64,000 bases of DNA from NCBI GenBank assembly GCA_949358305.1, contig OX442314.1, positions 3,286,001 to 3,350,000 of the forward strand. Reading direction: 5' to 3'. Under the pieces are notes generated by a model. The model ran no database searches and was not told where the DNA came from. It worked only from the letters and a program-made list of their open reading frames with translations. A program made the translations under genes and the position numbers. This DNA comes from Strigamia acuminata (taxonomy: Eukaryota). Numbering within the stretch: the stretch's first letter is position 1; every line of letters begins with the position of its first letter. Positions 1 to 59,337 of this stretch are shown piece after piece.

Positions 1-1685
1 GTCACCTACACCTGTGCGTCGCAATCCCCCACGAAAAGGAAAGGATACAGGGGAACGCACAGTTCCAGCTGGTGAGTTATTGCCGTTGGACATGTCTAAA
101 TGGCAAAGACGGCAGTCTGTGCGAAAATCAGGCGCAACGGCTGGGCAGGTTGATGTTTATTACATTTCACCAAAGCATGACAGAATTCGAAGTCGTGTTG
201 AAGTTGTGCGGTGGTATCGGGACGAGGGATACGAGTATATCTCGGAATTGTTCAACTTCAAAGACATCAATGTCGGTTTTGCTGGTTGTTGCTCTGTAGA
301 GCCTGACACCTACGAAGAGGCTGTAGCAGGTGTGGGAAAACCTGATTGGGAAAGGGCAATGGAGGACGAAATCGACATTTTTAAAGAACGAGAGGTGTAT
401 GTCGAGGTTGACAAAAGTGAAGTCAAGGATAAAACCTTGCTAGGGACAAAATGGATTTATAAACTCAAAAGGGATCATACGGGTGCGATTAGCAGATATC
501 GTGCTCGTCTTGTTGCACAAGGGTTCAAGCAGAAGCCCGGCATTGACTTTACGGAGGTCTTCTCCCCCGTAGTCAACTTTGTGTTGGTCATGATGTTCTT
601 TTGTACTCTTGTAGTATTAAGGAGCTGGCGTGACTTACACCTTGACATCAAGGCCGCATATCTATATGGGGACCTCGATGAGGTGCAGTACATCAACATC
701 CCCAAGGGATATCGAACACCTGAAAACCAACACAAATGTTGGGAGTTGAGAAAATCTCTCTATGGGCTTCATCAGTCTGGTCGTATGTGGTACCAGCGCT
801 TACACGACCAGCTGATTGAAATAGGTTTTGAACCGGTTTTGGGTCTTAACTGTGTGTATAGCTTGGGTTCGGACGCCATACTCATCTTTTACGTCGATGA
901 TATTGTGTTATTTTCGAGGGATGAGTTGGCAGAAGAGTGCGTTTTAGAATGGATTCAACAATCCTTTGAGATTGTCAATTTGGGCCCCGTCACCCTTTTA
1001 TTAGGGATTGAGTTTTGTAGGGACGGGGGGAATATCCTCATTCATCAACGCACCTATATTGCGAAGCTCTGCAAGCAATACGGTATTGACCCATCTCACC
1101 GTGTTAGAGTGCCTGGCACGCCCGGCACTATGATCCAAAAAGTCTAAACGGGAGAACGTGTTAATTCGAGTTTTCCATATCGGTCTCTTGTCGGAAGTTT
1201 GCTCTTCATCGCAAGTCGCACAAGACCCGATATCCTGTTTTCTGTAATTGTATTGTCTCAATACAACGAGACTCACTCGACACGACACGTAAACATGCTG
1301 CTTCAAGTGTTGCGTTACCTGGCTAATACGCCGAATTTCTCCATTAATCTTGGGAACTGCCAAAGTGACAAGTTAACTGTTTATACAGATGCGTCTTACG
1401 CGCTGGATCAAGACAAACGCCGAAGTTTTGGCGGGCACATTATCTATTTGGGTGGTGTCCCCGTCTCCTGGAACTGCCATAAGCAGACCATTACTGCCCT
1501 TTCCATTATGGAAAGCGAATTTTTGGCGGTTGTGGACGGTGTGAAGGAGATAATTTGGTTAGAACGCATATTTGACGCGGAAGTGATGATTGACGGCTTT
1601 GACCGGGAAATACCATGTGTTTATGCCGATTCAATGCCTGCGATTCAATATGCGAAAAACCGCATAGAAAATCGCGCAAACAAAC
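1..1685 (+). pseudogene. Copia A pol fragment (MBD, RT, RNase H), disrupted
   Basis: RT motifs (YRARLVAQGF, LYGLHQSG, FYVDD) and RNase H (YTDASY, SIMESEF); in-frame TAA at 1145-1147 where G has Gln; cut by insertion B at 1686. Confidence 0.9.
101..260 (+). other. MBD-like domain in Copia A
   Basis: WQRRQSVRKSGATAGQVDVYYISPKHDRIRSRVEVVRWY matches the canonical MBD pattern W-x5-R-K-S-G-x2-A-G-x2-D-V-Y-Y-x-S-P-x5-R-S. Confidence 0.88.
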
Positions 1686-2544
1686 TGTAGGACACTCGCC
1701 AAAATATTCATAAACGCAGTGGAAATAATAAAATACCCGATATATGAATGTCCTATCCAATAAATCGTCAAACGTCGGGCGGCGCGTCGTTAGGCTTTCC
1801 GGCGATGCGTATGCTCGGCGTCGTTCGCGTTGTGGAAACGTTCGCTCCTCGGGACGTGTATTCAACGTGAAATACAACGAAAATAAATATAAAGTTTTGT
1901 AAAATAAATGTACTCACATGTGATAATGTTATATTATCACATATTAACCAATGTGAAACCAATGTCTGGGTTTCACAATCCAAGCTGTGTTCAAATGTAG
2001 TTGAATCTTAAATGTAATGTCCAAAACTGTTAGTTTTCCATGCCTAGAAAATAGGTGAAGTTGGTCCAATCTGGGCCTATTTTCATGAATGTATAATGAG
2101 GTGTCTGGCAGAAGAAAAACACACGTACACGGTTGAAAACTAAAACAGAATGAATGACTTTTATTCTGGTGACGTCATTGAATTTACACACAGTACAAAT
2201 CTTATGACAAAACGAAAAAGATAATAAATAAAGATACAATCTCTCACCACGATGATGTCATTGCTTTGACATCATCACCACAGACTAACACGTTACGAGA
2301 ACATTAACACATTTCGTGTGGCGCCCTCGTACCGCATACAAGCAACAACACTATAACATTTTACATCAAATAAGCCGAAATTCATCCAGTTTATACAATA
2401 AACGATCAACATATATCAAACCATTTACTGACACAAATATGCTTTCACAATTTCGACTTAAGACTCTAAATTCTCGTATTTAAACAATGTTATACAATTC
2501 AATTATCAGATTTTAACGTCTAACAATTATCTCTTTATGTAACA
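1686..2544 (-). repeat. Copia B 3' LTR
   Basis: Direct repeat of 7077-7935; only one mismatch noticed by eye (1811 vs 7202). Confidence 0.97.
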
Positions 2545-2579
2545 ATCACCTCCTTAAATGTTACACGTTATATCTTGAT

Positions 2580-5500
2580 TCAAACATCCAACATATCTGC
2601 ACACAAGTCTTTTAACCGGTCCTGAGGCAGCCACTTTGTGAACAAATCTGCTAAATTCCATTTTGTCGGAATTTTCTCAATTGAGAAATACTCTTTCTCG
2701 AACCAGTCTCTTAAGAAGCAATAGCGTATTCGGATATGTTTAGTTTTAGAATTTTCAAGATCATTTTCCACAAATTGTATCGATGACAACGAATCCGAAT
2801 ACACTATTGGCATATTAATATAATCAAAAAGCACACAACTTTCGAATATGCTGGATAGCCAATATCCTTCCTGGACGGCGTGAACTAGCGCCAAATATTC
2901 CGCTTCCATAGTACTGCACGCCACGGAACTTTGTTTCCGACAACCCCAACTAATGAGGGCGTCGCCCATAAACAATGCAAACCCCCCAAAACTTTTGCAG
3001 TGATGGAGATCCGTCGCCCAGGAAGCATCGGTGTAAATGCGCAAATCCGTATTAGCGCATTTCGATAAATTAACACAATAATTTTTTGTATTCACAACGT
3101 ATTGAGCAATTTGTACAAGAGCCTTGACGTGTTTTTGAGTGTAGCTTGTGTTAAATTGGGACATGTATATTGTGGAATATAAAATGTCCGGCCTTGTCCT
3201 GGACGCGAGGAACATCAAACTCCCGACCAGCGATCGATATGGAAAGTCTGAGTTCGGATCAACTTCTTTAACATTGTGATTAAACGTTGACCCGGCTGCA
3301 ATAGGAACTCTCACTTTCGTATTTTGAGTCAAGTTGAATTTCACAGCCAACTTATCTCTGAAATGCTTCTGGTGGAGGCATACCTTCCCATTCTCACGAT
3401 AAAATTTCACACCTAGCAATTTTGTGATCCGACCCAAGTTCACAATGTTGAATTTTCGTTTAATGAGGTCAATTAGGGCGCTCTGGGTTTCCACATCTTT
3501 TGCAAACAAAATCATGTCGTCCACGTATATCAAGAGGACGGCACTGCGATCAAAAGTGTAAACGCAATTGCATCCAATCACTTTGGTGAAACCCAAATCC
3601 AGCAGACTGGTATTTAACTCCTCGAACCACATCCTGCCGGATTGGTGTAATCCGTACAATGATTTGTACAGGAGCCAAACATTGTCTGTTCCAGGTGTTC
3701 CGAAACCCTGCGGGATTTCCATGTGGATTGGGCAGTCCAGCTTGCCGTACAAGTACGCGCATTTCACGTCCAGATGGGCGTCCACCCAACCACGCAAGAT
3801 CACCAATAGGCAGAAGAACAGTCGAATTAACGTAAAATTTACGACTGGCGAAAACACTTCTGTGTAATCAACCCCTTGTGTCTGCCTAAAACCTTGTGCT
3901 ACAATTCTCGCACGATATCTGACGATATTGCCATCTTCGTCTGGTTTTAGCTTGTAAACCCACTTGTGACCCAAGACCTTTGCCTTTGGTCGTGGCACCT
4001 CTTCGTACACCTCCCTTTCCTGTAATGTCTCTATCTCTTCCTCCATCGCCTCTCTCCATTCTTTCGACTGAGGCGAGGAAGTCGCCTCCTCGTATGTTTT
4101 GGGCTGCGTGACAGCACAATACACGCTAATGGGAGGCGTCGTTGCTGTGAGGACCGTTTCCATTGGTTCCTCATCGGATGATTGCTCAATTGTATTGATG
4201 GGCTCCTTCACTGGGGTGAAATCGAATTTTAAAGGATTGTAGAAGATTCTATTCCCCCTGCAGAAAGCCTCGACTTCTTTCTTTGTCTTCAAAGGCCCTG
4301 TGCCATCAGGTGCGTAAAACAGCACATCAATTCTCCCAGCTGTAACACCTCCTTGCCTGGTCACTTGCTCCCTATCCCACCCATCTGCATCTGTGGTTCG
4401 GGTGGCAATTCGAGGTTTCTTAACTTTTGCCCCCCCTTGGACTGGCTGTGTGGGAATAGGCGCTTGGGCCATTGGTCCCACTTGTGGTGGGACCTGCGCG
4501 AGGGGTGCTGGGACTTTACGCATAACGGGAGGCGAACCCGGTGGTGTAGTGGGTGGCATCGGATCATGGAATTCCTGTTGATACAACCCACTCTCATCCG
4601 AATCGTAACCATTTGTATCCAAATCTGGTTGTTGAACATTTATGTCCACAGCATTAAAGGACTTCCAGTCCCTGGACTCATCAATGACTAAATGTTTTGT
4701 TTCGACTACCTCATTTGTAATTGGATTCCAAACCCTATAACCCCTTGTAGTGAATGCATACCCCACCAGTATGCCCTTCCATGCTCTTGAGTCGAGTTTG
4801 CTAGCTCTTTTGGGTTTGGGAATATGTACGAAACATAACGAGCCAATTGCACGTAAATGCTTCACTGCCATGCTTCTTTGTCTGAATTTAATGTAAGGAA
4901 TTTGTCCCTTCGCAAATAAATGTGGATACCTGTTCTTTAAATAAATGTAGCTGACAGCCAATTCTGCCCACAAAATCCACGGCAAATTTGTATCCTCAAT
5001 TATTGCGCGCACATTGTTTAATATTGAGCGGTTTAATCGCTCCGCAATGCCGTTCATTTGTGCTGAGTACGGGTTTGTTCTTTGGGCACCAATGCCCTTT
5101 TGTTGCAGAAAAGAATCAAATTCCTTGCTGCAAAACTCCCCACCCCGGCCCGTTCTGATTTCATGCACCTTTCTATTCGAACGGCGCTCAACGCGCGCCA
5201 AGAACGTTTTGAAAATTGGAAAAGCCTCGTCCTTCGTTTTCATAGGATAAACCCACGAGAATCGCGTTGCATCATCCACAATGCACAACAAATAACGTGC
5301 ACCACCCAGTGATGTTGTGGGGTTGGGCCCCCACACGTCTATATGCAACAATTCAAGCGGTTCCCCACGCTCGCGATCATCTCTAACTTTGTAATTAGCA
5401 CGGGTTGATTTTGCAATTCTGCATGAATCACACGCAAAATTGTTTAGATTTCCCGTGAAATCTAATCCCGTGGTCTCCTCACTTTTCAACAACGTGGCTA

Positions 5501-7010
5501 GCCCCTGAACATGCATGTGGGCAAAACGCTTATGCCACGTGTCGACAGAAACTGCAAAACTTTGCACAACAGGTGCAGGTTGTCGGGAAACAATTTCATA
5601 ACTTGGACTCTTGCTCTGTAATTGCTCAATTCGTTTTACATCTTTCTGTACAATCAATGGTGAAACTTGGGTAACATTTTGAGAAACTGAATTCAAATTA
5701 TTAACAATGGCATTTGTCATATTCTCATTCATTTGAACCTTTCCTTGGACACGATACAATCCATCTGACTGCCTGTTTGCTAACAATAAACACTCCTTGT
5801 TATTTTGTAAATACACTCTCAACACACCATTGTATATGTGTTGATTGAATCCAGCTTCATCAATTTTCCCACTTGAAATCAAATTGCGCTTGAAACCCTC
5901 GACAAAATACACATTTATTAAGTCCACATGGTTGTGGATTCCATTTGCAATTGTGCTGATGCATACAGCACCACAGCCAGTAATACTAGCTGTGCCCTGA
6001 CCCAATTGTAATTTTGTAGGAGGTAATGACTTGAAAGTCTGGAAATATTCCAATTTCCCGCATACGTGATCTGATGCACCGGAATCCACAAACCATGCGT
6101 CCTCATCACATACTTTTTCAATTGAATTGGACACACTTTCCCCCAAAAATGATGCATAAAAGGCTCCACGTAAACCCTTGCCTCGTTGGGGCTGTCCGCG
6201 CCCTTTGCCACGTCCACGAGTGTTGTCCTGTTGTTTTGTATTTGGCATTTGACAGTTCCGTGCAATATGTCCCTTTTCGTGGCAATTGTAACATAAAATA
6301 TTGGAAAAGTTGCTCTTACCTCCTTTGTTGTCTTGTTTCCTCGATCCTTGCTGATTGTTGGAAGCACTGACACTGAGAGCACTGGATTCCATCGTTGGAG
6401 AACTCGTTCCTGTCGTGTATCGACGACGTGCACTCTCGGCAAGCAATGCCTCGGAAACTTTATCAAACGTGAAGTCCCCGTCACTCCACTGGTAAATAGC
6501 CTGCACTTGATGTTCGTAGTCTTTACGAATTCTATTTATTAAAGTATAGGCTTTTACTTTGTCATTCGGCTCTTGTTTTATTGATTTCAATTCGTCGGCT
6601 GCCAATTCGACACGTGTGATAAACGTATCGACTTCCTCTTTATCGCCGCAACGAATCGTGTAAAAATCCTCGAGAATCTTTGCATTTCTCGCGACTGACG
6701 TGGGTTCGTGAAGCTTTTTGAGGTAATCCCACACCTCCTTCGATGTGTCCAGCTTTAACAGCGACGGTTTCAGTCTGGTCGCGACGCTGTTGCACAAAAT
6801 CCCACGTGCACGAGCTTTCCGCTTCTCGTATTTAGCCAAGTCCGTAGCCGACGTTCCATCCGGCGGCGCTTTAATTGTTTCGTCGTGGAATCCCCACAAA
6901 TTGAGTTCCTGAAGCAACAATTGAACGTCCACTTTCCACGTCTCGTAGTTGTTTTTGTCAAGCGGCGCGATTCCTGCCGCCGCCGACGCCGCGCTTCCCT
7001 TCGACGCCAT
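2580..7010 (-). CDS. Copia B polyprotein (gag, CCHC knuckle, protease, integrase, MBD-like, RT, RNase H), 1476 aa
   Basis: CYNCHEKGHIARNC; VDSGASDH; WHKRFAH..CDSC; LHIDVWGP; IYVDD; YTDASW. Second integrase Asp motif reads RTGRGGEF. Confidence 0.95.
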   Translation of the reverse strand: MASKGSAASAAAGIAPLDKNNYETWKVDVQLLLQELNLWGFHDETIKAPPDGTSATDLAKYEKRKARARGILCNSVATRLKPSLLKLDTSKEVWDYLKKLHEPTSVARNAKILEDFYTIRCGDKEEVDTFITRVELAADELKSIKQEPNDKVKAYTLINRIRKDYEHQVQAIYQWSDGDFTFDKVSEALLAESARRRYTTGTSSPTMESSALSVSASNNQQGSRKQDNKGGKSNFSNILCYNCHEKGHIARNCQMPNTKQQDNTRGRGKGRGQPQRGKGLRGAFYASFLGESVSNSIEKVCDEDAWFVDSGASDHVCGKLEYFQTFKSLPPTKLQLGQGTASITGCGAVCISTIANGIHNHVDLINVYFVEGFKRNLISSGKIDEAGFNQHIYNGVLRVYLQNNKECLLLANRQSDGLYRVQGKVQMNENMTNAIVNNLNSVSQNVTQVSPLIVQKDVKRIEQLQSKSPSYEIVSRQPAPVVQSFAVSVDTWHKRFAHMHVQGLATLLKSEETTGLDFTGNLNNFACDSCRIAKSTRANYKVRDDRERGEPLELLHIDVWGPNPTTSLGGARYLLCIVDDATRFSWVYPMKTKDEAFPIFKTFLARVERRSNRKVHEIRTGRGGEFCSKEFDSFLQQKGIGAQRTNPYSAQMNGIAERLNRSILNNVRAIIEDTNLPWILWAELAVSYIYLKNRYPHLFAKGQIPYIKFRQRSMAVKHLRAIGSLCFVHIPKPKRASKLDSRAWKGILVGYAFTTRGYRVWNPITNEVVETKHLVIDESRDWKSFNAVDINVQQPDLDTNGYDSDESGLYQQEFHDPMPPTTPPGSPPVMRKVPAPLAQVPPQVGPMAQAPIPTQPVQGGAKVKKPRIATRTTDADGWDREQVTRQGGVTAGRIDVLFYAPDGTGPLKTKKEVEAFCRGNRIFYNPLKFDFTPVKEPINTIEQSSDEEPMETVLTATTPPISVYCAVTQPKTYEEATSSPQSKEWREAMEEEIETLQEREVYEEVPRPKAKVLGHKWVYKLKPDEDGNIVRYRARIVAQGFRQTQGVDYTEVFSPVVNFTLIRLFFCLLVILRGWVDAHLDVKCAYLYGKLDCPIHMEIPQGFGTPGTDNVWLLYKSLYGLHQSGRMWFEELNTSLLDLGFTKVIGCNCVYTFDRSAVLLIYVDDMILFAKDVETQSALIDLIKRKFNIVNLGRITKLLGVKFYRENGKVCLHQKHFRDKLAVKFNLTQNTKVRVPIAAGSTFNHNVKEVDPNSDFPYRSLVGSLMFLASRTRPDILYSTIYMSQFNTSYTQKHVKALVQIAQYVVNTKNYCVNLSKCANTDLRIYTDASWATDLHHCKSFGGFALFMGDALISWGCRKQSSVACSTMEAEYLALVHAVQEGYWLSSIFESCVLFDYINMPIVYSDSLSSIQFVENDLENSKTKHIRIRYCFLRDWFEKEYFSIEKIPTKWNLADLFTKWLPQDRLKDLCADMLDV
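4260..4385 (-). other. MBD-like domain in Copia B
   Basis: DGWDREQVTRQGGVTAGRIDVLFYAPDGTGPLKTKKEVEAFC between integrase and RT. Confidence 0.8.
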
Positions 7011-7058
7011 TTTTCCGTCGTATCGTCGCTATTTTCCGTCGATATCGGGTTTTAGCAG

Positions 7059-7076
7059 AACCATCCTCTGCTACCA
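7059..7076 (-). promoter_or_regulatory. PBS of Copia B (initiator tRNA-Met 3' end)
   Basis: Plus strand AACCATCCTCTGCTACCA equals the last 18 nt of metazoan tRNA-iMet; directly abuts the 5' LTR. Confidence 0.93.
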
Positions 7077-7935
7077 TGTAGGACACTCGCCAAAATATTC
7101 ATAAACGCAGTGGAAATAATAAAATACCCGATATATGAATGTCCTATCCAATAAATCGTCAAACGTCGGGCGGCGCGTCGTTAGGCTTTCCGGCGATGCG
7201 TTTGCTCGGCGTCGTTCGCGTTGTGGAAACGTTCGCTCCTCGGGACGTGTATTCAACGTGAAATACAACGAAAATAAATATAAAGTTTTGTAAAATAAAT
7301 GTACTCACATGTGATAATGTTATATTATCACATATTAACCAATGTGAAACCAATGTCTGGGTTTCACAATCCAAGCTGTGTTCAAATGTAGTTGAATCTT
7401 AAATGTAATGTCCAAAACTGTTAGTTTTCCATGCCTAGAAAATAGGTGAAGTTGGTCCAATCTGGGCCTATTTTCATGAATGTATAATGAGGTGTCTGGC
7501 AGAAGAAAAACACACGTACACGGTTGAAAACTAAAACAGAATGAATGACTTTTATTCTGGTGACGTCATTGAATTTACACACAGTACAAATCTTATGACA
7601 AAACGAAAAAGATAATAAATAAAGATACAATCTCTCACCACGATGATGTCATTGCTTTGACATCATCACCACAGACTAACACGTTACGAGAACATTAACA
7701 CATTTCGTGTGGCGCCCTCGTACCGCATACAAGCAACAACACTATAACATTTTACATCAAATAAGCCGAAATTCATCCAGTTTATACAATAAACGATCAA
7801 CATATATCAAACCATTTACTGACACAAATATGCTTTCACAATTTCGACTTAAGACTCTAAATTCTCGTATTTAAACAATGTTATACAATTCAATTATCAG
7901 ATTTTAACGTCTAACAATTATCTCTTTATGTAACA
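7077..7935 (-). repeat. Copia B 5' LTR
   Basis: Direct repeat of 1686-2544. Confidence 0.97.
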
Positions 7936-7940
7936 CAAAC

Positions 7941-8104
7941 ACATAGACGTGAAATTGCATTTCTTGCGCGACTGGTTCGAGAAAGGTGTTTTTCGAATCA
8001 GGCACATCCCAGGGACCCTCAACGTCGCCGACATTATGACAAAGTGGTTGTCCCGCGCAAAATTGGACGCGTTGTGCGAGCACATTTTTGTCGCGACAAA
8101 TTGA
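7941..8104 (+). pseudogene. Copia A RNase H C-terminus (continuation after B)
   Basis: HIDVKLHFLRDWFEKGVFRIRHIPGTLNVADIMTKWL..., stop at 8102-8104; matches the C-terminus of G. Confidence 0.92.
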
Positions 8105-8121
8105 TTAATCGAAGGGGGATT

Positions 8122-8554
8122 TATTAGTATGCGATTAATTATTTTGTCCGTTTCCCCATGCATTTCTGGATAGGCATGGCAGATATGTGTGTTGGCATCC
8201 TTTGGATACCCGTGTAGCGCATATTAATGCTACTCTTATGTGTTAACACACATATTCTATGTTTCTTGTGTCGTCTGCTTGAGAAAGCGATAAATGTTGT
8301 TTTCCGTGTTGTTTATCGGTTACTTATGCCTAGGTTAACAATTACTTATATTGTAAAGAACAAATCAATGCTTGTTGCTATTGATTTGTCCTATTGTCAT
8401 ATTTTGTATGGTTTGAGACCAATTAGCCTCAAACCCAGTTGCTTTTATGTTTTCATGTGATTAAAACATGGCGGGCGCGAAGTGCGAGCTCCCCGCACAT
8501 TTTAAGCTGGTTTCAACTCCTTTCCGATGTTTCCTGGCCTCCACGGACTTATCA
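8122..8554 (+). repeat. Copia A 3' LTR
   Basis: Follows the PPT; recognisably similar to the G LTR (reverse complement of 58855-59320); starts TATTAG (G has TGTTGG), ends TCA at the satellite. Confidence 0.75.
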
Positions 8555-8555
8555 A

Positions 8556-10132
8556 AACCGGGGGTCGACCGACTCGAACCGGGGGTCGACCGACTCGAAC
8601 CGGGGGTCGACCGACTCGAACCGGGGGTCGACCGACTCGAACCGGGGGTCGACCGACTCGAACCGGGGGTCGACCGACTCGAACCGGGGGTCGACCGACT
8701 CGAACCGGGGGTCGACCGACTCGAACCGGGGGTCGACCGACTCGAACCGGGGGTCGACCGACTCGAACCGGGGGTCGACCGACTCGAACCGGGGGTCGAC
8801 CGACTCGAACCGGGGGTCGACCGACTCGAACCGGGGGTCGACCGACTCGAACCGGGGGTCGACCGACTCGAACCGGGGGTCGACCGACTCGAACCGGGGG
8901 TCGACCGACTCGAACCGGGGGTCGACCGACTCGAACCGGGGGTCGACCGACTCGAACCGGGGGTCGACCGACTCGAACCGGGGGTCGACCGACTCGAACC
9001 GGGGGTCGACCGACTCGAACCGGGGGTCGACCGACTCGAACCGGGGGTCGACCGACTCGAACCGGGGGTCGACCGACTCGAACCGGGGGTCGACCGACTC
9101 GAACCGGGGGTCGACCGACTCGAACCGGGGGTCGACCGACTCGAACCGGGGGTCGACCGACTCGAACCGGGGGTCGACCGACTCGAACCGGGGGTCGACC
9201 GACTCGAACCGGGGGTCGACCGACTCGAACCGGGGGTCGACCGACTCGAACCGGGGGTCGACCGACTCGAACCGGGGGTCGACCGACTCGAACCGGGGGT
9301 CGACCGACTCGAACCGGGGGTCGACCGACTCGAACCGGGGGTCGACCGACTCGAACCGGGGGTCGACCGACTCGAACCGGGGGTCGACCGACTCGAACCG
9401 GGGGTCGACCGACTCGAACCGGGGGTCGACCGACTCGAACCGGGGGTCGACCGACTCGAACCGGGGGTCGACCGACTCGAACCGGGGGTCGACCGACTCG
9501 AACCGGGGGTCGACCGACTCGAACCGGGGGTCGACCGACTCGAACCGGGGGTCGACCGACTCGAACCGGGGGTCGACCGACTCGAACCGGGGGTCGACCG
9601 ACTCGAACCGGGGGTCGACCGACTCGAACCGGGGGTCGACCGACTCGAACCGGGGGTCGACCGACTCGAACCGGGGGTCGACCGACTCGAACCGGGGGTC
9701 GACCGACTCGAACCGGGGGTCGACCGACTCGAACCGGGGGTCGACCGACTCGAACCGGGGGTCGACCGACTCGAACCGGGGGTCGACCGACTCGAACCGG
9801 GGGTCGACCGACTCGAACCGGGGGTCGACCGACTCGAACCGGGGGTCGACCGACTCGAACCGGGGGTCGACCGACTCGAACCGGGGGTCGACCGACTCGA
9901 ACCGGGGGTCGACCGACTCGAACCGGGGGTCGACCGACTCGAACCGGGGGTCGACCGACTCGAACCGGGGGTCGACCGACTCGAACCGGGGGTCGACCGA
10001 CTCGAACCGGGGGTCGACCGACTCGAACCGGGGGTCGACCGACTCGAACCGGGGGTCGACCGACTCGAACCGGGGGTCGACCGACTCGAACCGGGGGTCG
10101 ACCGACTCGAACCGGGGGTGGACCGACTCGAA
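8556..10132. repeat. 21-bp CpG-rich tandem array 1, (AACCGGGGGTCGACCGACTCG)n, about 75 copies
   Basis: Near-perfect tandem repeat read directly; 4 CpG per unit and a GGTCGACC palindrome. Confidence 0.99.
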
Positions 10133-10289
10133 TCTGTTGTTTATCGATGCCAAACAGTCCTCCGTACTTGTTCTGCGCATTTCTAGTGTTTTCCTGCATC
10201 AAGCAGTGTTTTGTATGTATTTAGACTTTAAGTTATTATTTAGCACTGGGCATAATGCTGCCCCTATCAGTATTATATAAGTTTATTCG

Positions 10290-12688
10290 CGAATTTGCGA
10301 TAAATTTTCTATTTGCAGATTTCCGCGACGATTTTCGTCTTTAGAACGTTCGAGACGACACGCTGACGTTCTCTAGTAGTCTGGATTACCGGCACTACGA
10401 TTGTTTATTTAATTTTGTTCGAATTTCCGCGGGATTCGCAATTTTCGAAACGAATTTTGTGTATTTTCAGATTTTCGCCGTTTTCCAACGAGAATCAACG
10501 TTGGAAACCCATTTTACACAGCGTGAACGACGATTTGGACTAATTCCCAACTTAGTACACCGTGTACGGTCGTTGTATCGACGATTTTTCTCGAAGAAAC
10601 GACGATTTTCGACGATTTTCGCATTTAAATGCGCAACTACGCCATTTTCATCTCTAGATTGGCGCAACGTCTCATCATACTAATTAAAAATTGCTTTTCA
10701 GTTGTCGTAATTAGCTTGTTAGTATTTAAGGTCGTATTATGTTTTTGTGGGTCCCTTAGAATAGTTTGTGCCCTTCGGTTCAGTCGAACCACCGCACACA
10801 CTCATTCCTAGCCAGTGCTTACCGCGGCCAACAGGTACTCCCGCGCCTCCAGGTAGGCGAACGAACCACTGTGTGTTGGCTGGCTAGGGTTATCTGACCA
10901 CTTCAGAAGTGGTTGCCCAATTCGATTGATATCCGCTTTGACAGTGCTTCGATCAGTACGCCATATTTGTGTTGTGCAACGCGATATCGTGCTACGAGAC
11001 CGTCAAGTGCTCCAATCGTACCATTCTCAATCCAGTGTGTTTTGCTACGGATAGTTTCGTAACTTCACGTCATCATGTCCAAGTCCGTCGAAGGAAACTC
11101 CGGGCGACTTCCCATTCTCAGCGTAGGAAACTACGAACTATGACAGCGCTCTATGCGCATGGTACTGAGAAGTGAAGAATTATGGAAACATGTGACGGAA
11201 GAAGAGGAGGAAGATTTCCTTAAAACCGCCGGAGATAAGGAGAAGAAGAAATACAAGCGTCGTAAAGCCAAGGCATTAGGCTTAATATACTGTTCTGTAA
11301 GCGAGGCGAAAAAGTCCGCCCTAGACGATTGTAAAACCCCGAAGGAAGCATGGGACATTTTAGCCAACATTTATGCGCCATCATCTCGTGCGCGGCAGGC
11401 AGCCGTGCGCCGCGAATTTTTGAATTTGCGCCTAGAACAAGGCGAGGATATGGCCGATTTCCTAAGTCGCGTTGACTATCATGTCCGCCAGATGAAGGAC
11501 ATCGGGGAAACAACTTTGCCAGATCATCACGCTTACCAGTACCTGGATTTACTGCCCTGGGAATATTCGCAGATTTCATTCACAATATATCACTTGCCTA
11601 AAGGAGAATTTACACCAAAGAAAGTGTCCGAACAGTTGCTCGCGGAACATATGCGACTCAAAGTTATGGATTCGCGCGACATAGACAATTCTAAACCTCC
11701 ACGTGCCTATGCTGGTGAAAAACAGCAACGTGGGAGAAATCGTTCTCGTCCCTCTCGACCGTTATCTTCGGTGCAGTGTTTTAATTGCCAGGAATTTGGC
11801 CATTACGCAAACAAATGTCCATTACCGTCGCGCCGAGATGACAAGAATCAACCGGCAGCTTCACTTCAAAGAAAGCCGAGGAGTTCAAGCCGTAAACGCA
11901 ATAAGAACTCAAACCGAGATGATTCTAGGCCAAGGGGGAATTCCAACGCAAGGCGGGAAACGAACTTTTTCTCCAGTGCTCCGCAACAGTTGCCCACAAT
12001 TCACTTCATGCAATCACATGAATGGATAGTGGATTGTGGGGCAACCGATCATGTGTGCCACGTCCAGGCTTGGTTTCAGGACTTTGTCAAAGTTGTGCCC
12101 TTTAATATCGCATTGGGTCAAGGACATTCCGAAGTTCTAGGAAAGGGCAAAATCCAGATTATCTCCATGATCAACAACGTAGAATGTGTCGTAAATCTCC
12201 AAGATGTGTTGTATGCGCCAAAATTTGAAGCGAATTTGATTTCAGTGTCAAAAATGGACAAAACTAAACATCACATCCATATTTGGAATGGAGACGGCTT
12301 GTGCCCACCTTCAACACTAATGTCAACAGTGGATATACCTATTGCGCAGTTGACCGCTCTGACCCGAACATTAGTCACGACAGAAGAGGATTTCATCCAG
12401 TATCCAAGGGCAAAGAAAAAGTCGAAAGATCCTGAACTTTTTACTGATTTTCAGCTCGAATTCCTTCCTTTGCCAAATGAAATTCCTCCACCTGTACCAA
12501 TCAAAGTAACCCAGTCCAAGACACCTCCTGTACCTGTTCCTACCAATCCATTACCTCAAATCCCATCCTTTGCCGACACATTAAAGGCAAACCCTTTGAT
12601 CTCCCACCTGAATTCAAATTCAAAACCGAATTCAAAGCCAACCAACGCAAAGACGGTTGCAGCGCCATTGGTTAAAAAGGATGCGACT
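10290..12688 (+). mobile_element. Truncated Copia C (5' leader, gag, protease), relative of Copia E
   Basis: Leader 10290-11074 resembles E leader 16313-17185; no LTR or PBS recognised; ends at KDAT just before the integrase HHCC. Confidence 0.8.
11075..12688 (+). pseudogene. Copia C gag-protease pseudogene
   Basis: ATG 11075, TGA at 11141-11143 (Trp in E), CFNCQEFGHYANKC, VDCGATDH, in-frame deletion of about 25 aa relative to E after IHIWNG. Confidence 0.88.
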
Positions 12689-13743
12689 CTTGGTATACAT
12701 CTGCTTGTTCCATGTCGCGGTTGTGCGCTGACGCTTTAACTTGTCAATATCGGCCATATTTCAACAAAAATTGTTCGACTTACAGTTTTTTGTTCAATCT
12801 CCGGTTCAAACCAATGTGCCGGGTTTCGGCACCAATGTTAAATCCCTCTCGTAACACACTGCAGTCGAGTTCTTGTTTAAAAATTCGTATTGTTGTCGTA
12901 CAAAAAAATCACCTTTTGTTGTATCCAAATCGTCCGGTTTGTTCGCAAAAAGAGTCGCCTTTTTGTAGTCTCAAAATAGTTCGTATTTGCAGGTCAGTTT
13001 CCAACCAGTCTCGGTTGAAAAAGTGTAACAGTCCTTTAGATGTGAAGAAAACACACACACACTCAGGTTAAAGTAAATGTTGCACACTGATTTTATTCTT
13101 GTTTCTACAGACTACCGTATATCTGCAAATAGCACACCCGTGCGCTATTTGCCAAAATTTTTTTTTAACCGCGCGCTATTAGAGGCCCGTGGGCTATTAG
13201 AAGCCCGCGGTTTATTTCAAATCTGAAAAATTGTAACGAAACGTATGGATGACGAATTGATTAAAAATTGTATTAAGTTTATTCTGAATCGATTAACATT
13301 TCCTCATTTTCCTCATTTTCCTCATCACCTTCTTCAACACGGAGACACACCGAATTTCTTTGCAGCCTTTTCGCCGGAATTCTCCTTGGCATACTGAATT
13401 GCTGCCAACTTAAAGCTGAGATCAAACGAACGTGGCATCTTGAAGCACAATACTACTCAATCCAAACTGTGCTACTTATATACTGGTACCAACAATTGAA
13501 ACGTTTCCGAGACATAACACCAATTATGATACGTCTCGGTAATGTAACAATTTGCCCCGTGCGCTAAACAAGGTCCGCGCCTTATTTGTAAAAACGACTT
13601 TGACCCCGTGTATTACTTAAGGTCCGTGGGCTATTAAGGGCCCGTGTAGTAATCGACAATATACGGTATATATCTAATCAAATGAGGTTAATTGGTTGTT
13701 CACCATTGGTGAAACAAAATACAAAGAAAATGAAAAATAATAG
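12689..13743 (-). mobile_element. BEL/Pao-like remnant: split 5' LTR, tRNA-Phe PBS and gag start
   Basis: Minus strand: LTR end ...TTAACA (12836), PBS TGGTGCCGAAACCCGG (12819-12834), then ATG 12757 MADIDKLKRQRTTA. LTR has AATAAA and a GT-rich U5; interrupted by the pogo element and Gypsy F, with probable TGTAAA start displaced to 41970-41975. Confidence 0.6.
13115..13666 (-). mobile_element. Internally deleted pogo/Tigger-like (Tc1-mariner) DNA transposon, 552 bp
   Basis: TA-CCGTATAT...ATATACGG-TA termini with TA TSD; subterminal CCCGTG(G/C)GCTATT repeats; minus-strand remnant 13438-13279 MPRSFDLSFKLAAIQYAKENSGEKAAKKFGVS (Brinker-type HTH start) joined out of frame to an acidic tail. Confidence 0.8.
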
Positions 13744-13998
13744 TGTGGAGTTTTTCGGGTGTAACGGGCGATAACGATCGCCAGGGGGCGGGCGGACACA
13801 AACGGAATATGTCCGATAAACGTTTTGGGGGTGAACAGCCAATTGGGGGCCGTTCTTTGTAATCAACCAATCAGGGTTGACCAGTCTGATATATAATCAG
13901 TTTGTTTTGTTTAATAAAATCACTTGAAGTTAACTAGAGCTTGTAGTTGTGTCTTGGTAATTTTGGGTCAGCTAGTCTCAGCTTTGAGATTGTTTACA
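13744..13998 (+). repeat. Gypsy F 5' LTR
   Basis: TG..CA; repeat of 41711-41965 with about 6 mismatches by eye. Confidence 0.95.
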
Positions 13999-14011
13999 TC
14001 AGAAGTGGGAT
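13999..14011 (+). promoter_or_regulatory. PBS of Gypsy F (tRNA-Leu, lacking the 3'-terminal 5 nt match)
   Basis: TCAGAAGTGGGAT is complementary to tRNA-Leu ...ATCCCACTTCTGA(CACCA). Confidence 0.75.
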
Positions 14012-14198
14012 AGAAGGATTCGATGCGACGATAGACGATAAAGTAGACGAGAAAGTAGAAGAAGTAAGAGGCGACAACTGTTTTTGGCGACGGGAACGAA
14101 AATCGGGGTAACAAATAGCGCGTGGACGGTTCGGGAAACAAGAGACGATTCGCCGAATAAACACGTGCTACGAAGGTTAGCCGAACTTCGAACGAGAG

Positions 14199-15738
14199 AT
14201 GGCCGACGCGGAAGCAGTATTAGCAAAAATCCAACTTAAAGAGATTCCATCGTACAAAGATTTAAACGTGCTGAGGACCCGAGAGATTAGACCGCTATTA
14301 CGGGAGCGGAAAATTGTGCCACAGAAGTTGAAAACAGACATGTTGGGACAATTATGGCGCGCGTTACGTACGGAAGCGGGAATCGTAGAACGAGTAGAAA
14401 GCGACGACGAGGATGACAACGACAAAGAAGAAGAAGAAGAAAAGAACGATTTAGAAAACGACGACGACAAGTCGAAGACAGAAGAGAACGTGTCGCTAGA
14501 AGCAGACGGCGTGTACAGTAAAGATCTGATGATGACAAAGATGTTGCAGATGATGGAAAGCATGCAAAAATCGCAGAGAGAGCCGAAGGAAGTAAAGAAC
14601 GCGCCGAAGTTGCCACGATTCTCGGGCGAACGAAGCGAGCTGCGTACGACCACGCAATGGTTATAAGATGTTCGCGAATACGCCAAAGAATATAAGTGGA
14701 CGAATGTGACCAAAGTAACGACGGCGGCAGCAGCGTTAGAAGGACCAGCGAAGGTGTGGCAAGACAGCGCAGGAACGACGATCCGGAACTTCGACAAATG
14801 GGCGATCGAGCTGACGAAGAATTTTCCAGATCGACAACTGTCTTACGAAGATAAAGAACGATTGATTCGAGCTCCACAGAAGAACGACGAGACCACCGAA
14901 ACCTATTTACATCAAAAATGGGCCACGTGCGAAAGACTGGGAATGTCGATCAGCGACGCGCAGAATTATCTGTTAGTTGGACTAAGAAGCAAAGCAGCGA
15001 CGGCGCCGATGTACGTTGTCCAATATCAACACATCAGCGAGATGGTTGGAACGGCGCAAAACCTGGAAGCTCGAGCGAAGGGGACAACGATCGAAGCAAA
15101 GACGAAAACGAGCTCTACGAGGCCAAACGGAAGAGGATTCGACGCAAGGCCGAAGTGTTTTAGGTGCGGCGAGAAGGGGCACCAGAAGTCAGATTGTCCG
15201 AACGAGCTGAAGTGTTTTAAATGCCACGAATCGGGCCATCTGGCGAATGCGTGTCCAAATGGAGTAAAATGCTTCAATTGTAACGGGTTTGGACACATGG
15301 CAAACGCGTGTCCAGAGCCGAAGAAAGAGCGGAAGCAGCCATCAAAGGACAAGTTGGACGTTAAAACGAAGAAGATTTACAAAATCGAAGCCAAGGAGAT
15401 GCAGCCAGAATTCGAGACCATTATGTGGGTCGATGGAAAGAAATGCAGCGCGGGAATCGATACGCAAAGCGCCGTGTGTCTGATTAGTAAGACGTTTTCG
15501 CAACGTACAAAGATCGAGGAGCCGGACTACGAATACGTGATCGAAGGATTTAATCAAGATGCAAGTCGTTATCGTGGGCGAACGAGATGTGATGTAGAAA
15601 GCGCAAACGTGAAATTGGCGGGTGTCGAGTTCTATGTGGTCGACGACGCCAGAATGCCGACGGAAGTCTGGATAGGGAAACCATTCTTGAAACACCTGAC
15701 GATCACGATGCAATCAGACGGAGGTTACGTGACGTTCA
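14199..15738 (+). pseudogene. Gypsy F gag-protease (fragment 1)
   Basis: ORFs 14199 and 14706 are in one frame split by TAA 14664-14666; three CX2CX4HX4C; protease IDTQS; cut by E. Confidence 0.9.
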
Positions 15739-16299
15739 TGTTGGTCCTAAGACCAAATTTGTTGTCGATATCAAATGTTTATATACTATATGTTTTGTGT
15801 TCAAACACATTGTATTGATATTTGATCATTTATTTACTGTTTTCTCTATTTGGATTTATTTTCTGCTGTCCAGTATGTAATTCCATACTTTGCTTATGTT
15901 TTACTTAGATGATTTGTTCTTTAATTTAAAACTTAATGTTAATAACTGTCACCAGAGTGCTGTGACACTCTTACCCCGAATCCAAGATGGCAGCGCACAC
16001 AGGTGTGTGCACTTTCACATCTTTCACCTTTGGAAATCCATTTATGTAAGATATGGTTTACTTTTCATTAAACTTTTATGTTTTTAAGTGTTTACCTTCA
16101 CTTTAGAGCACCTTCAGTGCTATTTAAGCGCATATAAGCGACCACAAGTCACGCACTCGCTCGAACCGCATCACGCGCTCGCTCGAATCGCATCACGCGA
16201 TTCTGTTATCGGAATTAACCGTCGCGCATTTGCGACGAGCTTTATTTCACGCTTCCACATCGGTTCATTTGCCGATTATTTGCGCACCACTCACCTACA
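15739..16299 (+). repeat. Copia E 5' LTR
   Basis: Direct repeat of 22354-22914. Confidence 0.97.
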
Positions 16300-17185
16300 G
16301 TGGTAGCAGAGGTCTGGGGACGATCTGCTCTTATTTTTCACCTAATTTTCGGCGTAATTTTCGCGGGATTTGCGATTTTTGCGGCGAAATTCATTTTATT
16401 TTCAGATTTCGCCGATTTCGACGATTTCCGCCCGAATCTTTGCTTCGAAACGTTCGATCGACGTTCTGGACTGCCAGGGCAGTCTATTTCACCATTGCTT
16501 CGTTAATTTTGTCCGAAATTCCGCGGGATTCGCGAATTTCGCGACAAATTTTTGTTTTTTTCAGGTTTTTCGTCAATCTGGATTCACTTCTCCGCTTAGC
16601 ACGTTGCGGCGGATACAACGAGAATCCAATACTAGATTATTGGCCGCTTAGTTCCCCGGTGAACGGCGGTTATCACCGATCTTTTCAAGCGGACGAAGAG
16701 CCTCGAATTTTCGAGAAGAATTCGGACATTGACGTCCGAATTGCGCTTTCTCCAGCTTTTCGAGAAAGCTGCGCCGTGCCTTCATTTGCACGAGGATTGC
16801 ACCCGCGATCGATTCATCTATTTCTCCTTGTGTCGAAATTACTTGTTAGCATTAAGATAATATTTAAGGCTTTTGGGGGACATTTAGCATCGTATTCGCC
16901 CTTCGATCGAATCCGATCAAGCGATTACGTATTCTCCGGTAGTGCTTGTCGTGGTACAAGTGAGGTTTCCCGCGGGCCCAGGTGCACCGATCGGACCCTC
17001 TCAGACTGGCTACCGGAGGTTTTTGAATTCCTTCAGAAGGAATTGCCCAATTTGACGGTTTCCGCCTCGAAAGTGCTTCGCATCGAGTGTTGTGCTTCGT
17101 TTTCGTGCAGTGCTACGGTGTCTCCTGTGTGCCATTTCCCTGAGCCTGTGTTTTCGTCGCGTTGTTGTCAGTTTTCAACGCCACG

Positions 17186-20100
17186 ATGCACAAATCCGGA
17201 GATTCATCGAGCAAAATTCCCGTACTCGGAGTTGGAAACTACGAGCAGTGGCAACGATCGATGCGGATGCTCTTAAAGTCCGAGGGCCTTTGGAGGCATG
17301 TTACCGAGGAGAAGGAAGTCGAACATTTAGCTACCTTGACGGAAAAAGAAAAGGATCGGTACATGACCAAGAAAGATAAAGCCCTCGGTCACATCTATAT
17401 CCAAGTCAGCGAGCCCAAAAGATCAGTGTTGGACACGTGCAACACGCCGAAAGAGGCGTGGGACGCGCTGGCTAAGATTTATGCGCCAAGCTCACGGGCC
17501 AGAAGAGCAGCCATGCGTTGGGAGTTTTTAAATCTCCAGATTGGACCCAACGAGGATATGCCGGATTTTATTGCCCGAGTCGATCACTACGTGAGGCAAT
17601 TAAAGGACGTTAAGGAGGAAACTTCGCCCGACCACCACGCATATCAGTATCTTAAGGGATTGCCACCTGAGTATGCCCAGGCAACGTTCGCAATTTACCA
17701 TTGGCCGGATGACAAATTTACACCGACTTTGGTTGCCGAACAGTTGATATCCGAACAATCTCGTTTAAGATCGGCGGGTCTGCTTCGAACAACTCCACCG
17801 ACGGCTCATGCTTCTGCGAAAGGACAGTTTCGCCAACGCAATAAATCCGGTGCCCGTGATTTGTCAACTATTCGGTGTTTCAATTGCGACCAGATGGGCC
17901 ACTACGCGAATAAGTGCCCCCACCCTCGACGTGAGAATCCGAACCCGAATCAGTCGACGGCTTCCGTACAACGCTCCTCGAGAAGTAAGAGTCGAAGACG
18001 GAATAAGACCGCCGTCGCCAAGGTCGAAGACACTCGTCCTCGAGGGAGCTCACGTCCAATTCGGAAAGGGACATTTTTCTGCAGTGCACCGCAAGTCGTT
18101 GAGCGCCCAGTTGCCCACTTTATGCAATCCAATGAGTGGATTGTTGACTGCGGCGCTACCGACCACGTGACCCATGTGCGAGCGTTATTCACCGATTTCA
18201 CGAACATTCCGCCTTTCGATATCGAATTGGGCCAAGGCAAATCGCAAGTTACTGGACGAGGAACGGTTCAACTTCTCACGTCAGTTGATGATGCAGATTG
18301 CGTTTTGGATTTGACCAACGTTCTATATGCACCGAATTTCGAAGCCAATTTGATTTCGGTGTCGAAAATCGATAAAACGCGACATCATATCCACATTTTC
18401 AACGGAGAAGTTAATGTTTATGAATCGGACTATCGTTTGCCAATCATTCGTGCAAAGGAACGTGGTGGCTTGTATTATTTGGACGGTTTGTGTTCGGTTC
18501 CCATCAGTTCGACAACGGTTTCGACGGCCACTCCACCGGTAATTCAACCTGTCAAAACACTGGTCACGACAGAAGTGGATTTCGACAATGTACCGAAACC
18601 GGCTAAAGGAAAACAAAAGCAACGGGAAATTACAGACTATCGTTTCGAACTGCCAGCGGTTGAGAGTGTGAAGGCAATTCCCACCCAACCAATTCCAAAC
18701 CTGACCGATCCCACTCATTTTCCCGTCCTTACTCCCGTTTCTTCACCGGTCATTGTCAATCCGACCACACAGTCCTATTCCAATGCTCTGCAATTCCTGC
18801 CAACTTCCCCTCCTCCTGGCAATTTACCTCCGTCACAGAAGAAGGTAATTGCTAATCCTGCTTCGGTTAAAGACGCCACCGGTCTATGGCATAGTCGACT
18901 CGGTCATCTGCATACTAATGCAATGAAGCTTCTGGCAGCTAACGACCAGGTTTATGGTTTGCAACCAGCTGAAGTTCGACAGGAATTGTCGTGTAACGAC
19001 TGCAGAATTGCTAAATCGACCAGAGCTTCACATAAACCGGACCCGAATCCCTGTACATCGAAACCTTTGGATCTTCTACACATGGATTTGTGGGGGCCAG
19101 CCCCGCTCACATCACTGGGCGGTTCGGATTATGTTTTCACCATTATCGACGATGCCACGCGTTACACGTGGATTATCCCGTTGGCGCAGAAATCCCAGAC
19201 CTTTGGGGCATTTAAGGACTTCGTCGCCCGAGTCGAACGAATTCAGAACACTCGCGTGAAAGCGATCAGATCCGACCGTGGCGGCGAATTCATGTCAAAT
19301 GAATTCTTGAACTACCTCAAAGAAAAGGGCATCCAAGGGCAGAGGACCAATCCCGCATCACCTCAAATGAACGGGACTGCAGAACGCATAAATCGAACAA
19401 TGGCCGACAGTGTCCGATCTCTTATCTCTGAAACTCAACTCCCGGATGACCTTTGGGCAGAACTCGCAGTCACTTTCGCGTATGTGAAGAACCGAAGTCC
19501 GCATTCGAGATTGAATAACCAAATTCCCTATATCCTATGGCGACAACGAGCATTGTCTTTACGACACCTACGCAAAATGGGGTCCAAATGCTGGGTGCAT
19601 TACACCGCGCCAGGCCGCAAGAAACTAGATCCGCGTGCATGGGAGGGATATCTCGTTGGTTACGCGACTGGTACCCGCGGATATAGAGTTTGGAATCCAG
19701 TAGAAGATCGAGTTTACGAAACGGTTCACGTCAAGATCGATGAACGCCAATCATATCGGAAATCTCTTCGTGGCGCATCTCAACGGCCCGAAGAAACTTT
19801 TTCTGATGTCGGACAGCAATCGGTTTCGTTTAACGACAACGTCCAGTTCCATGACTGGCCAAGAGGATCCGATTCCGAACATTCTGATCATTCCGACGAC
19901 GATTCCGATAATGGTGGAGCTAGCCATGCTAGCGGCGTATCGACATCTCACTCTGTTCATACACCGGTCATCCAATTGCCGCCCCCGACAACGCCAGAGC
20001 AGTTATTGTTGGATGCGTGTGCACTGCAATTACCGAGTTCGGCAAGTCTAGGACATTCACAATCGTATCCCATCCTCTATCAGGAAGGAGATACAGATGA

Positions 20101-22144: not shown

Positions 22145-22353
22145 CTTTATCGTGACATTCTTAATTTATTTTTTTCCCGATTGCGAGGATCATCGAGTTT
22201 CAGAGGGAATATTCGGGCTTCCGCAGAGTTTTTCAATGATAGTACCCGGCTCGGTGATTCGACATTATTATTTCCCTTTTGATTAATGTTTATACTATAA
22301 TTCTAGTACCCGATTGTATCTTTCCCCGAACATTTAAGATCGAAGGGGGGATT

Positions 22354-22914
22354 TGTTGGTCCTAAGACCAAATTTGTTGTCGATATCAAATGTTTATATA
22401 CTATATGTTTTGTGTTCAAACACATTGTATTGATATTTGATCATTTATTTACTGTTTTCTCTATTTGGATTTATTTTCTGCTGTCCAGTATGTAATTCCA
22501 TACTTTGCTTATGTTTTACTTAGATGATTTGTTCTTTAATTTAAAACTTAATGTTAATAACTGTCACCAGAGTGCTGTGACACTCTTACCCCGAATCCAA
22601 GATGGCAGCGCACACAGGTGTGTGCACTTTCACATCTTTCACCTTTGGAAATCCATTTATGTAAGATATGGTTTACTTTTCATTAAACTTTTATGTTTTT
22701 AAGTGTTTACCTTCACTTTAGAGCACCTTCAGTGCTATTTAAGCGCATATAAGCGACCACAAGTCACGCACTCGCTCGAACCGCATCACGCGCTCGCTCG
22801 AATCGCATCACGCGATTCTGTTATCGGAATTAACCGTCGCGCATTTGCGACGAGCTTTATTTCACGCTTCCACATCGGTTCATTTGCCGATTATTTGCGC
22901 ACCACTCACCTACA
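22354..22914 (+). repeat. Copia E 3' LTR
   Basis: Direct repeat of 15739-16299. Confidence 0.97.
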
Positions 22915-22919
22915 GTTCA

Positions 22920-23123
22920 GACCGAGGGAAGGGATGCGAGACGAATCAGGAATTTCAAGAATCGAGCCAAAGATCACTGCAGCAAAGCCGCGAGCGCTCG
23001 TGATCGACGAAAACAAAGTGGTACCAGCCCACTCGATAAGTTTGGTGACGGTACGAGCGAAGAGTCAGTCAGACGGATTGTTTTACGTAGAAAACAAGCA
23101 CGCGGTGACGGATCGGTTGGAAG
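22920..23123 (+). pseudogene. Gypsy F pol fragment 2 (PR-RT linker)
   Basis: Short stretch between the TSD of E and the TSD of D, same purine/CpG-rich composition as F. Confidence 0.8.
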
Positions 23124-23428
23124 TGTTGAAATTGCTTGTATACTTGTGTTAATTGCATAGTTCTGCAGCAATGGTGTGGAAAATGTCCAAAGTAAAAACA
23201 CAGGTGTTTATAGGTATGAAATCAAACATAGAGTGAGTTTTATTTCTCAAGTCACATGACATGCCCATAGGTATACAACACCATCTTATGGGAATAAAAG
23301 CAAACACACTTGTAAATAGAGCAGCGGCTATTTGTTTAGCCAAATGCAAAAGATAACAAAAGGTCACGATAAATATACAAAGTGTCACAGCTTGACAATA
23401 CGATACATCAGCACACAATATCTCAACA
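23124..23428 (-). repeat. Copia D 3' LTR
   Basis: Direct repeat of 28696-29000. Confidence 0.96.
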
Positions 23429-23446
23429 ATCGGCCCCCTCGTATTA

Positions 23447-28683: not shown

Positions 28684-28694
28684 GGCCCATAACC
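28684..28694 (-). promoter_or_regulatory. PBS of Copia D (internal/half tRNA-iMet type)
   Basis: GGTTATGGGCC is complementary to the anticodon arm GGCCCATAACC of tRNA-iMet, as in Drosophila copia. Confidence 0.85.
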
Positions 28695-28695
28695 T

Positions 28696-29000
28696 TGTTG
28701 AAATTGCTTGTATACTTGTGTTAATTGCATATTTCTGCAGCAATGGTGTGGAAAATGTCCAAAGTAAAAACACAGGTGTTTACAGGTATGAAATCAAACA
28801 TAGAGTGAGTTTTATTTCTCAAGTCACATGACATGCCCATAGGTATACAACGCCACCTTATGGGAATAAAAGCAAACACACTTGTAAATAGAGCAGCGGC
28901 TATTTGTTTAGCCAAATGCAAAAGATAACAAAAGGTCACGATAAATATACAAAGTGTCACAGCTTGACAATACGATACATCAGCACACAATATCTCAACA
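28696..29000 (-). repeat. Copia D 5' LTR
   Basis: Direct repeat of 23124-23428. Confidence 0.96.
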
Positions 29001-41965: not shown

Positions 41966-41998
41966 ATAGTTTACAAAAACCCACATCTATTAATAGTA

Positions 41999-58041: not shown

Positions 58042-58045
58042 ATAT

Positions 58046-59320: not shown

Positions 59321-59337
59321 AATCCCCCTTCGATGAA

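Follow-up and report, generated by a model that had tools for sequence, protein, structure and literature searches.

The locus considered here raises the question of whether a retrotransposon that encodes an MBD and the CpG-rich tandem repeat joined to it form a dedicated pair, or whether the junction records one ordinary insertion. It lies in a stretch of 64,000 nucleotides of Strigamia acuminata (GCA_949358305.1, contig OX442314.1, positions 3,286,001 to 3,350,000), which was analyzed as a whole and is called the window. A preliminary description of this DNA had read the junction as a possible reader/target pair, with the repeat arrays as a landing pad for MBD-Copia elements. The element concerned (A) and the two arrays are the following; a strand is given where one applies.

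1-1685, forward strand: left piece of element A, with the end of the integrase-RT linker, the MBD, the RT and the start of RNase H; it runs off the window and has one in-frame stop
101-229, forward strand: MBD of A (Pfam PF01429, E 1.2e-9; alignment to MBD1 chain 1d9n_A, E 4.6e-10)
7936-8121, forward strand: right piece of A, with the end of RNase H and the polypurine tract (~8111-8121)
8122-8554, forward strand: 3' LTR of A, 433 bp, with TA...CA ends
8555-10134: array 1, 75 units of a 21-bp repeat, 71% GC, 4 CpG per unit, first base variant
41970-43060: left flank of array 2, AT-rich and depleted of CpG (o/e 0.45), containing short tandem repeats of 31, 21 and 18 bp that are unrelated
43061-46029: array 2, ~140 units of the same 21-bp repeat, with two blocks of a 22-bp variant (extra G); TRF places its end at 46027

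Element A is split by the nested element B (1686-7935). Its RT is recognized as RVT_2 (Pfam, E 8.6e-53) and the MBD lies in frame upstream of it, the integrase being off the window. This MBD keeps R22, D32, Y34 and R44 (MBD1 numbering, from the alignment to 1d9n_A), which we take to be the methyl-CpG-contacting residues of MBD1. Y34 is among the MBD residues named in the available part of the article by de Mendoza, Pflueger and Lister (2019, PMC6673714), where CopiaMBD elements are described from the centipede Strigamia maritima and from Stegodyphus spiders. In an RT tree (125 rows, quick maximum-likelihood search, midpoint root, Strigamia sequences left out), A groups with B, D, E and F of the window in one clade of 38 rows (SH-aLRT 99). 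The clade contains all 30 MBD-positive rows, including proteins of Araneus and Stegodyphus mimosarum, and 8 of the 38 have no detected MBD. The profile built from the window detects no MBD in the clade members P0005, P0006, P0008, P0009, P0011, P0022 and P0030; the MBD-free members could possibly be secondary losses. The closest database relatives have 43-48% identity over the MBD-RT region and, compared by eye, A has SGATAGQ-DVY and RSR-EV in common with the DAP-seq-tested Strigamia CopiaMBD1. Since the MBD residues are kept and the RT falls inside the MBD-Copia clade, A is, as judged from its sequence, a CopiaMBD retrotransposon, a kind already described (PMC6673714).

The window is built largely of further elements, which enter the argument as neighbors and as targets.

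1686-7935, reverse strand: element B, full-length MBD-Copia in the RNase H of A; LTRs of 859 bp with 1 difference; TSD CAAAC
10250-12293 (start approximate), forward strand: element C, truncated Copia with 5' UTR, gag and protease
13744-41965, forward strand: Gypsy1, base of the main nest, hosting D, E and H; LTRs 2.35% apart; TSD ATAG
15739-22914, forward strand: element D, full-length MBD-Copia in Gypsy1; identical LTRs; TSD GTTCA
23124-29000, reverse strand: element E, MBD-clade Copia with a degenerate MBD-like stretch; LTRs 1.3% apart; TSD GGAAG
58855-64000, reverse strand: element F, of the sister family of A (83% DNA identity), within a copy of E; its MBD has W at position 34

The gag-PR-INT-RT order is complete in F, B and D, with the MBD between the integrase SH3 and the RT, and the left piece of A is 87% identical to F over 381 aa. 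Position 34 of the MBD differs among the families, being Y in A and D, L in B, W in F and E in element E. D keeps R22, D32, Y34 and R44, and its MBD passes the cut-off when scanned alone (PF01429, 24.1 bits vs 21), while that of E is below the cut-off. The MBD stretches of B, F and E lie at 4185-4406, 60904-61110 and 25070-25276. B, which has L34 and K44, retains a full ORF and near-identical LTRs despite the loss of Y34 and R44. C shows 49% amino acid identity with the MBD-bearing D, and no integrase, MBD, RT or 3' LTR of C was found in the window. Its ORF runs on in frame for 148 aa (12294-12739) as a proline-rich, non-Copia stretch with no Pfam family, a predicted fusion at the truncation point.

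LTR pairs of the window elements are 0-2.35% apart, and Gypsy1, which has no MBD, is the oldest dated element and landed in CpG-poor DNA. The LTR element H (29766-39475) has 1.9-kb LTRs with 1 difference and a 4-bp TSD (ATCG). A tandem of about 235 bp begins where its 5' LTR ends and repeats the PBS-like sequence, which is presumably tRNA-Gln-like, and its single ORF of 550 aa (35309-36961) matches no Pfam family. With no gag-pol seen, H looks like a very young non-autonomous element. A small MITE-like element (13113-13668) has 25-bp imperfect terminal inverted repeats starting TACCGTA.

The junction itself is as first described: the 3' LTR of A ends at 8554 and the array starts at 8555. These limits are backed by the alignment with F, whose 3' LTR is co-terminal with that of A and whose end is fixed by the interrupted copy of E. 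They are also backed by high-depth contigs of the public runs X1-X3, which have ends or breaks at 8554 and at, or directly beside, 8122. The B/A stretch was present in 3 of the 5 public runs listed (X1-X3, from two studies, one of them possibly the source of the window). No piece bridging the join with at least 31 letters on each side was found among 24 of 438 pieces listed, which weighs neither way. The LTR of the A family starts with TA, not TG (8122-8127), the public-run contigs agreeing with the window, so that the family as a whole likely has this start. Compared with contigs of its family, A has 2 differences in 370 bases and 4 in 316, from which its age would be comparable with those of E and Gypsy1.

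The repeat carries 4 CpG per 21 bp in both arrays, as previously stated, which corresponds to 18.9 CpG per 100 bp, and the two arrays hold 7.1% of the bases of the window and 22% of its CpGs. The context, described as otherwise AT-rich, is not so for most of the surroundings, where retroelement bodies have 44-49% GC and 4.8-9.4 CpG per 100 bp. Among the stretches measured, the AT-rich ones are the LTR of A (39% GC), 32600-37500 (33-36%) and the left flank of array 2 (33%). The last is indeed non-LTR, and its CpG depletion is of the kind that old methylated DNA tends to have. In array 2, the two 22-bp blocks (43376-43680 and 45005-45290) lie ~1.6 kb apart and have an internal point variant in common, being a higher-order duplication inside this array; the extra-G variant also occurs in contigs of runs X2 and X3. 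A SalI site is present in each unit of both arrays.

Several possible natures of the repeat were examined and rejected. Derivation from an LTR of the window was not accepted, since the best scores are short and marginal (8 LTRs on 2 strands, 16 comparisons; shuffles scoring as well were 2/200 for the LTR of D, 0/200 for that of G and 1/200 for that of H). A 22-bp tandem in the LTRs of D (2.3 copies; 16149-16199 and 22764-22814) has 9 bases in common with the 21-mer, again marginal against shuffles. A coding repeat was dismissed, since all six frames are open across the arrays for the sole reason that the unit contains no stop, and the reading frame of array 2 is broken by its 22-bp variants. 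The predicted fold of four units does not surpass that of shuffled sequences (z 0.57), and the matches to Rfam mir-434 are due to chance (29.8 bits against a gathering score of 100). A 26-nt pattern of the repeat had no matches in metagenome contigs or in viral contigs.

Outside the window, a loose end in runs X2 and X3 is another left edge of the repeat, resembling that of array 2 (14 matches, 1 mismatch and 2 gaps, by eye) and carrying its edge variant. Because of this resemblance and the variant in common, the 21-bp repeat is probably part of a sequence that is itself repeated and keeps one left flank. In array 1 the edge variant is absent, which fits an insertion of A inside the array. Words of the repeat are commoner than the LTR of A in all three public runs, the summed depth being ~3.5x (X1) to ~40x (X2) that of the LTR, a ratio of depth and not of copy number.

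Array 1 had been said to start in mid-unit, a wording with no fixed meaning in a tandem array, and its starting register is the same as that of the left edge of array 2. The first base is A where the unit has G, a variant found in no other unit of either array; the edge units of both carry other point changes. We retain the integration of A into the satellite as the preferred reading, given that the join coincides precisely with the terminal CA of the LTR; the mismatch of the first array base to the unit counts against it.

That mismatch is one argument for another origin of the join, in which an unprocessed cDNA end was captured at a break, or a deletion ended beside the LTR, in a repeatedly rearranged locus. 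The two bases that follow the CA of A are AA, as between the 5' LTR and the PBS in the A family (runs X2 and X3), which would explain the sole mismatch to the array, seen in no other unit. The locus also has at least three other joins not made by transposition (46197-46201, 46345 and ~12293). However, a random deletion is unlikely to end within 2 bases of an LTR terminus, point changes are present in other edge units, and the G to A change is what deamination of a CpG of the unit would give. All six complete elements of the window have clean TSDs, and the sister element F has a standard end. We regard a rearrangement as quite unlikely and keep integration as the preferred origin of the join.

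The two arrays are not independent of each other, as appears from the comparison of their right sides, where two further stretches have to be considered.

10135-10306, forward strand: right flank common to both arrays, with 1 difference in 172 bp; it begins TGTTG and has no recognizable PBS
46030-58854: second post-array block, with the right flank, a piece of Gypsy1 gag (corresponding to 14311-14459) and a piece of E (corresponding to 24064-28215)

After array 1 the order is the 172-bp flank, the truncated Copia C, Gypsy1 and E. Copy 2 is colinear with it, missing 10307-14310 and 14460-24063, and its piece of E is split by the Gypsy element G (49687-58041). Aligned over 4476 bases, the copies show 18 differences (0.40%). 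Because the arrays have a common right flank and lie in colinear copies ~0.4% apart, they likely represent a single locus whose duplication came later than the insertions of Gypsy1 and E; the second copy may also be an assembly join of two haplotypes. At this divergence ~3 variants would be expected among the 73 internal units of array 1, and there are none (P 0.046), all being identical (TRF score 3147, 99% matches, 75.1 copies). This suggests that array 1 was recently expanded or homogenized, or was smoothed by the assembly. The common right flank would be a 5' LTR of C in truncated form or, alternatively, sequence bordering a repeat that carries the array.

If it is the former, the 21-mer could be a true, repeated CopiaMBD hotspot, which A entered on the left and C, independently, on the right, with 5-bp targets in one register and each strand cut between the C and the G of a CpG. 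On the right, each array breaks off 5 bases into a unit; TGTTG comes next, a pentamer that opens the LTRs of D, E and F and is found at 0.19% of non-array positions. The 5' UTR of C, a relative of the MBD-bearing D, begins ~115-150 bp after the right edge of the array. The junction of A implies the register of that edge (a coincidence with a chance of 1 in 21, recognized post hoc), and the target of D also has one cut between C and G. A second LTR start at the right edge, if real, would favor the preliminary description and double the insertions in arrays. Nevertheless, neither a PBS nor an LTR-terminal CA plus PBS was found upstream of the gag of C. The right flank matches the LTR of D no better than shuffles do (114/200 as good, not significant), and its match to the LTR of E is marginal (0/200, with a score of 52 against a shuffle maximum of 51, in one of 16 comparisons). 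The 5-base variant is also present at the left edge of array 2 and may therefore be the old end of a seed repeat; the targets of B, E and F have no CpG at the cut, and none of the 4 A-family flanks listed is satellite. We consider such a repeated hotspot unlikely, though a serious alternative. Its fuller version, a minisatellite that is a recurrent, register-specific hotspot where the families of A and C both entered one 1.6-kb array at 5-bp targets framed by two CpGs, seems to us rather unlikely; if true, the hotspot would be the first single-sequence natural target for MBD-guided integration.

Against a role of the arrays as a general landing pad, the insertions of the MBD clade in the window can be counted. 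Five have a readable target (A, B, D, E and F) and only that of A is in an array, the other four being in other retroelements; C has no readable target, the second E was omitted as a duplicate, and the window was chosen for the junction. With this sample, at least one array insertion in five has a probability of 0.31 under a uniform distribution and of 0.71 if weighted by CpG; with the arrays counted as one locus, the values calculated by hand are ~0.12 and ~0.37. B, D and E inserted into coding sequence of other retroelements, at 8.4, 9.3 and 9.7 CpG per 100 bp (89th, 93rd and 96th percentiles among non-array 300-bp windows), and the target of F, readable on one side only, has 3.3 (23rd percentile). 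The non-Copia elements Gypsy1, G and H have targets at the 14th, 32nd and 93rd percentiles. CpG-rich targets may simply reflect a nest built of CpG-rich elements, since B and E, with MBDs lacking Y34, and the non-Copia H also sit in such targets.

In the public runs, likewise a very small sample, 0 of 4 target flanks of A-family LTRs among 18 of 33 loose-end rows listed are satellite, two of the four having 3-4 CpG in 30 nt and two having none. The 80 metagenome loci kept from 565 Copia relatives contained no MBD and no match to the repeat, and are uninformative on an association with satellite. As regards a possible methylation of the array, substitutions of the CpG type make up 9 of the 30 between the duplicated segments, which is not significant against an assumed 20% (p 0.11, n=29 in the test), and the 73 unmutated CpG-rich units of array 1 show no deamination. 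The proposal that the arrays nucleated the MBD-Copia cluster is not supported. They did not demonstrably nucleate the nest, because its oldest dated element, Gypsy1, has no MBD and lies in CpG-poor DNA; they are, in addition, likely one locus.

Pericentromeric or centromeric heterochromatin had also been proposed, and in its strongest form the repeat would be a centromeric or pericentromeric satellite with MBD-Copia as its centrophilic retrotransposon, as for plant centromeric retrotransposons. Deeply nested, very young LTR elements in a gene-free window are typical of heterochromatin, and the words of the repeat exceed the LTR of A in all three runs. LTR elements invade satellite arrays throughout the eukaryotes, and among 263 candidate centromere satellites there are 32 whose units are shorter than 100 bp, according to the available part of a recent preprint (bioRxiv 10.64898/2026.09.17.752431). 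On the other hand, nothing in the window points to a centromere. Long satellite arrays (100 kb to Mb) are absent from it, the arrays being of 1.6 and 3.0 kb, bounded by non-satellite DNA and occupying 7% of the window, and their edges have flanks in common with another locus (by eye), as for a dispersed minisatellite. A centromeric role is in our view very improbable.

Another way of attracting insertions would be through the Pol III machinery. tRNA genes are such insertion platforms for yeast Ty1 and Ty3, and the minus-strand B-box of each unit could be a putative TFIIIC platform. GTTCRANNC, presumably the Pol III B-box pattern, has 212 matches in the arrays, in every core unit on the minus strand, and occurs in 647 of 200000 shuffled units (0.3%). 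However, this match was recognized post hoc, the stricter GGTTCGANNCC gives 0 matches, and nothing links the CopiaMBD integrase to Pol III. A Pol III gene or a tRNA-derived repeat was rejected, the arrays having the loose B-box pattern but no A-box, with 0 tRNA genes and no Rfam family near its gathering score. The chance that Pol III explains the insertion is very slight.

We prefer, with a confidence that goes somewhat beyond an even chance, to see the junction of A and the array as one ordinary insertion under the published preference for CpG-dense DNA and not as a dedicated pair. A reader/target pair holds in the general sense published for CopiaMBD (PMC6673714, available part), but not as a special partnership. 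What is observed, and what this reading builds on, are the junction, the MBD with its four key residues, the place of A in the clade, the order in which the elements are nested and a second copy colinear with the first; in an ordinary nest of LTR elements, the array is the spot richest in CpG. According to the available part of PMC6673714, CopiaMBD domains bind CpG-dense methylated DNA by DAP-seq and young CopiaMBD copies have CpG-richer 150-bp flanks. Guidance of integration by the MBD is presented there as proposed and unproven, its authors being unable to reject other scenarios; in that proposal the MBD between integrase and RT would tether the integration complex to methylated CpG-rich chromatin. 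The complex of A would then have been drawn to CpG-dense, probably methylated DNA in general and would have integrated inside an array belonging to a repeated sequence with a common left flank. Later, the block of array, C, Gypsy1 and E would have been duplicated in tandem, plausibly via unequal exchange between arrays, and copy 2 would have lost two segments. If array 1 was expanded or homogenized recently, the target met by A was possibly shorter than 1.6 kb.

Our literature search, with most subscription journals outside its reach, found no pairing of MBD-Copia with a satellite. In the main text of PMC6673714 the terms satellite, tandem, centromer-, nested and TSD do not occur, and in that of the preprint there is no MBD, methyl-CpG, Strigamia, centipede or myriapod. 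The published case for steering by the MBD consists, in the part available, of binding data and flank statistics (PMC6673714). To this the locus adds a single junction that fits the known CopiaMBD preference. No natural substrate is cleaner for this question than a homogeneous repeat with 19 CpG per 100 bp, and counting CopiaMBD against Gypsy junctions in arrays, with their register, would test MBD steering directly. The genome itself has several active CopiaMBD families, with and without Y34, which provide a built-in control.

GC-rich minisatellites (VNTRs) can be carried within dispersed repeats, and the arrays resemble them in the 21-bp unit, in their kilobase length differing between duplicated loci, and in having degenerate edge units around a homogeneous core. 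With the centrophilic LTR retrotransposons (plant CRM chromoviruses, Athila and centromeric Copia), as far as the available part of the source describes them, the locus has in common an element with a chromatin reader that abuts a tandem repeat, in a region of nested elements without genes; it differs in its kilobase arrays, its 21-bp unit and the position of most insertions outside the arrays. In comparison with the available description of CopiaMBD (PMC6673714), the family of A differs in the TA...CA ends of its LTR, and Y34 is changed in several families of the window. The likeness extends to the Copia domain order with the MBD between integrase and RT in one ORF, to the methyl-CpG-contacting residues in A and D, to insertion in CpG-dense, LTR-rich DNA, and to the grouping of the RT of the window elements with spider MBD-Copia proteins.
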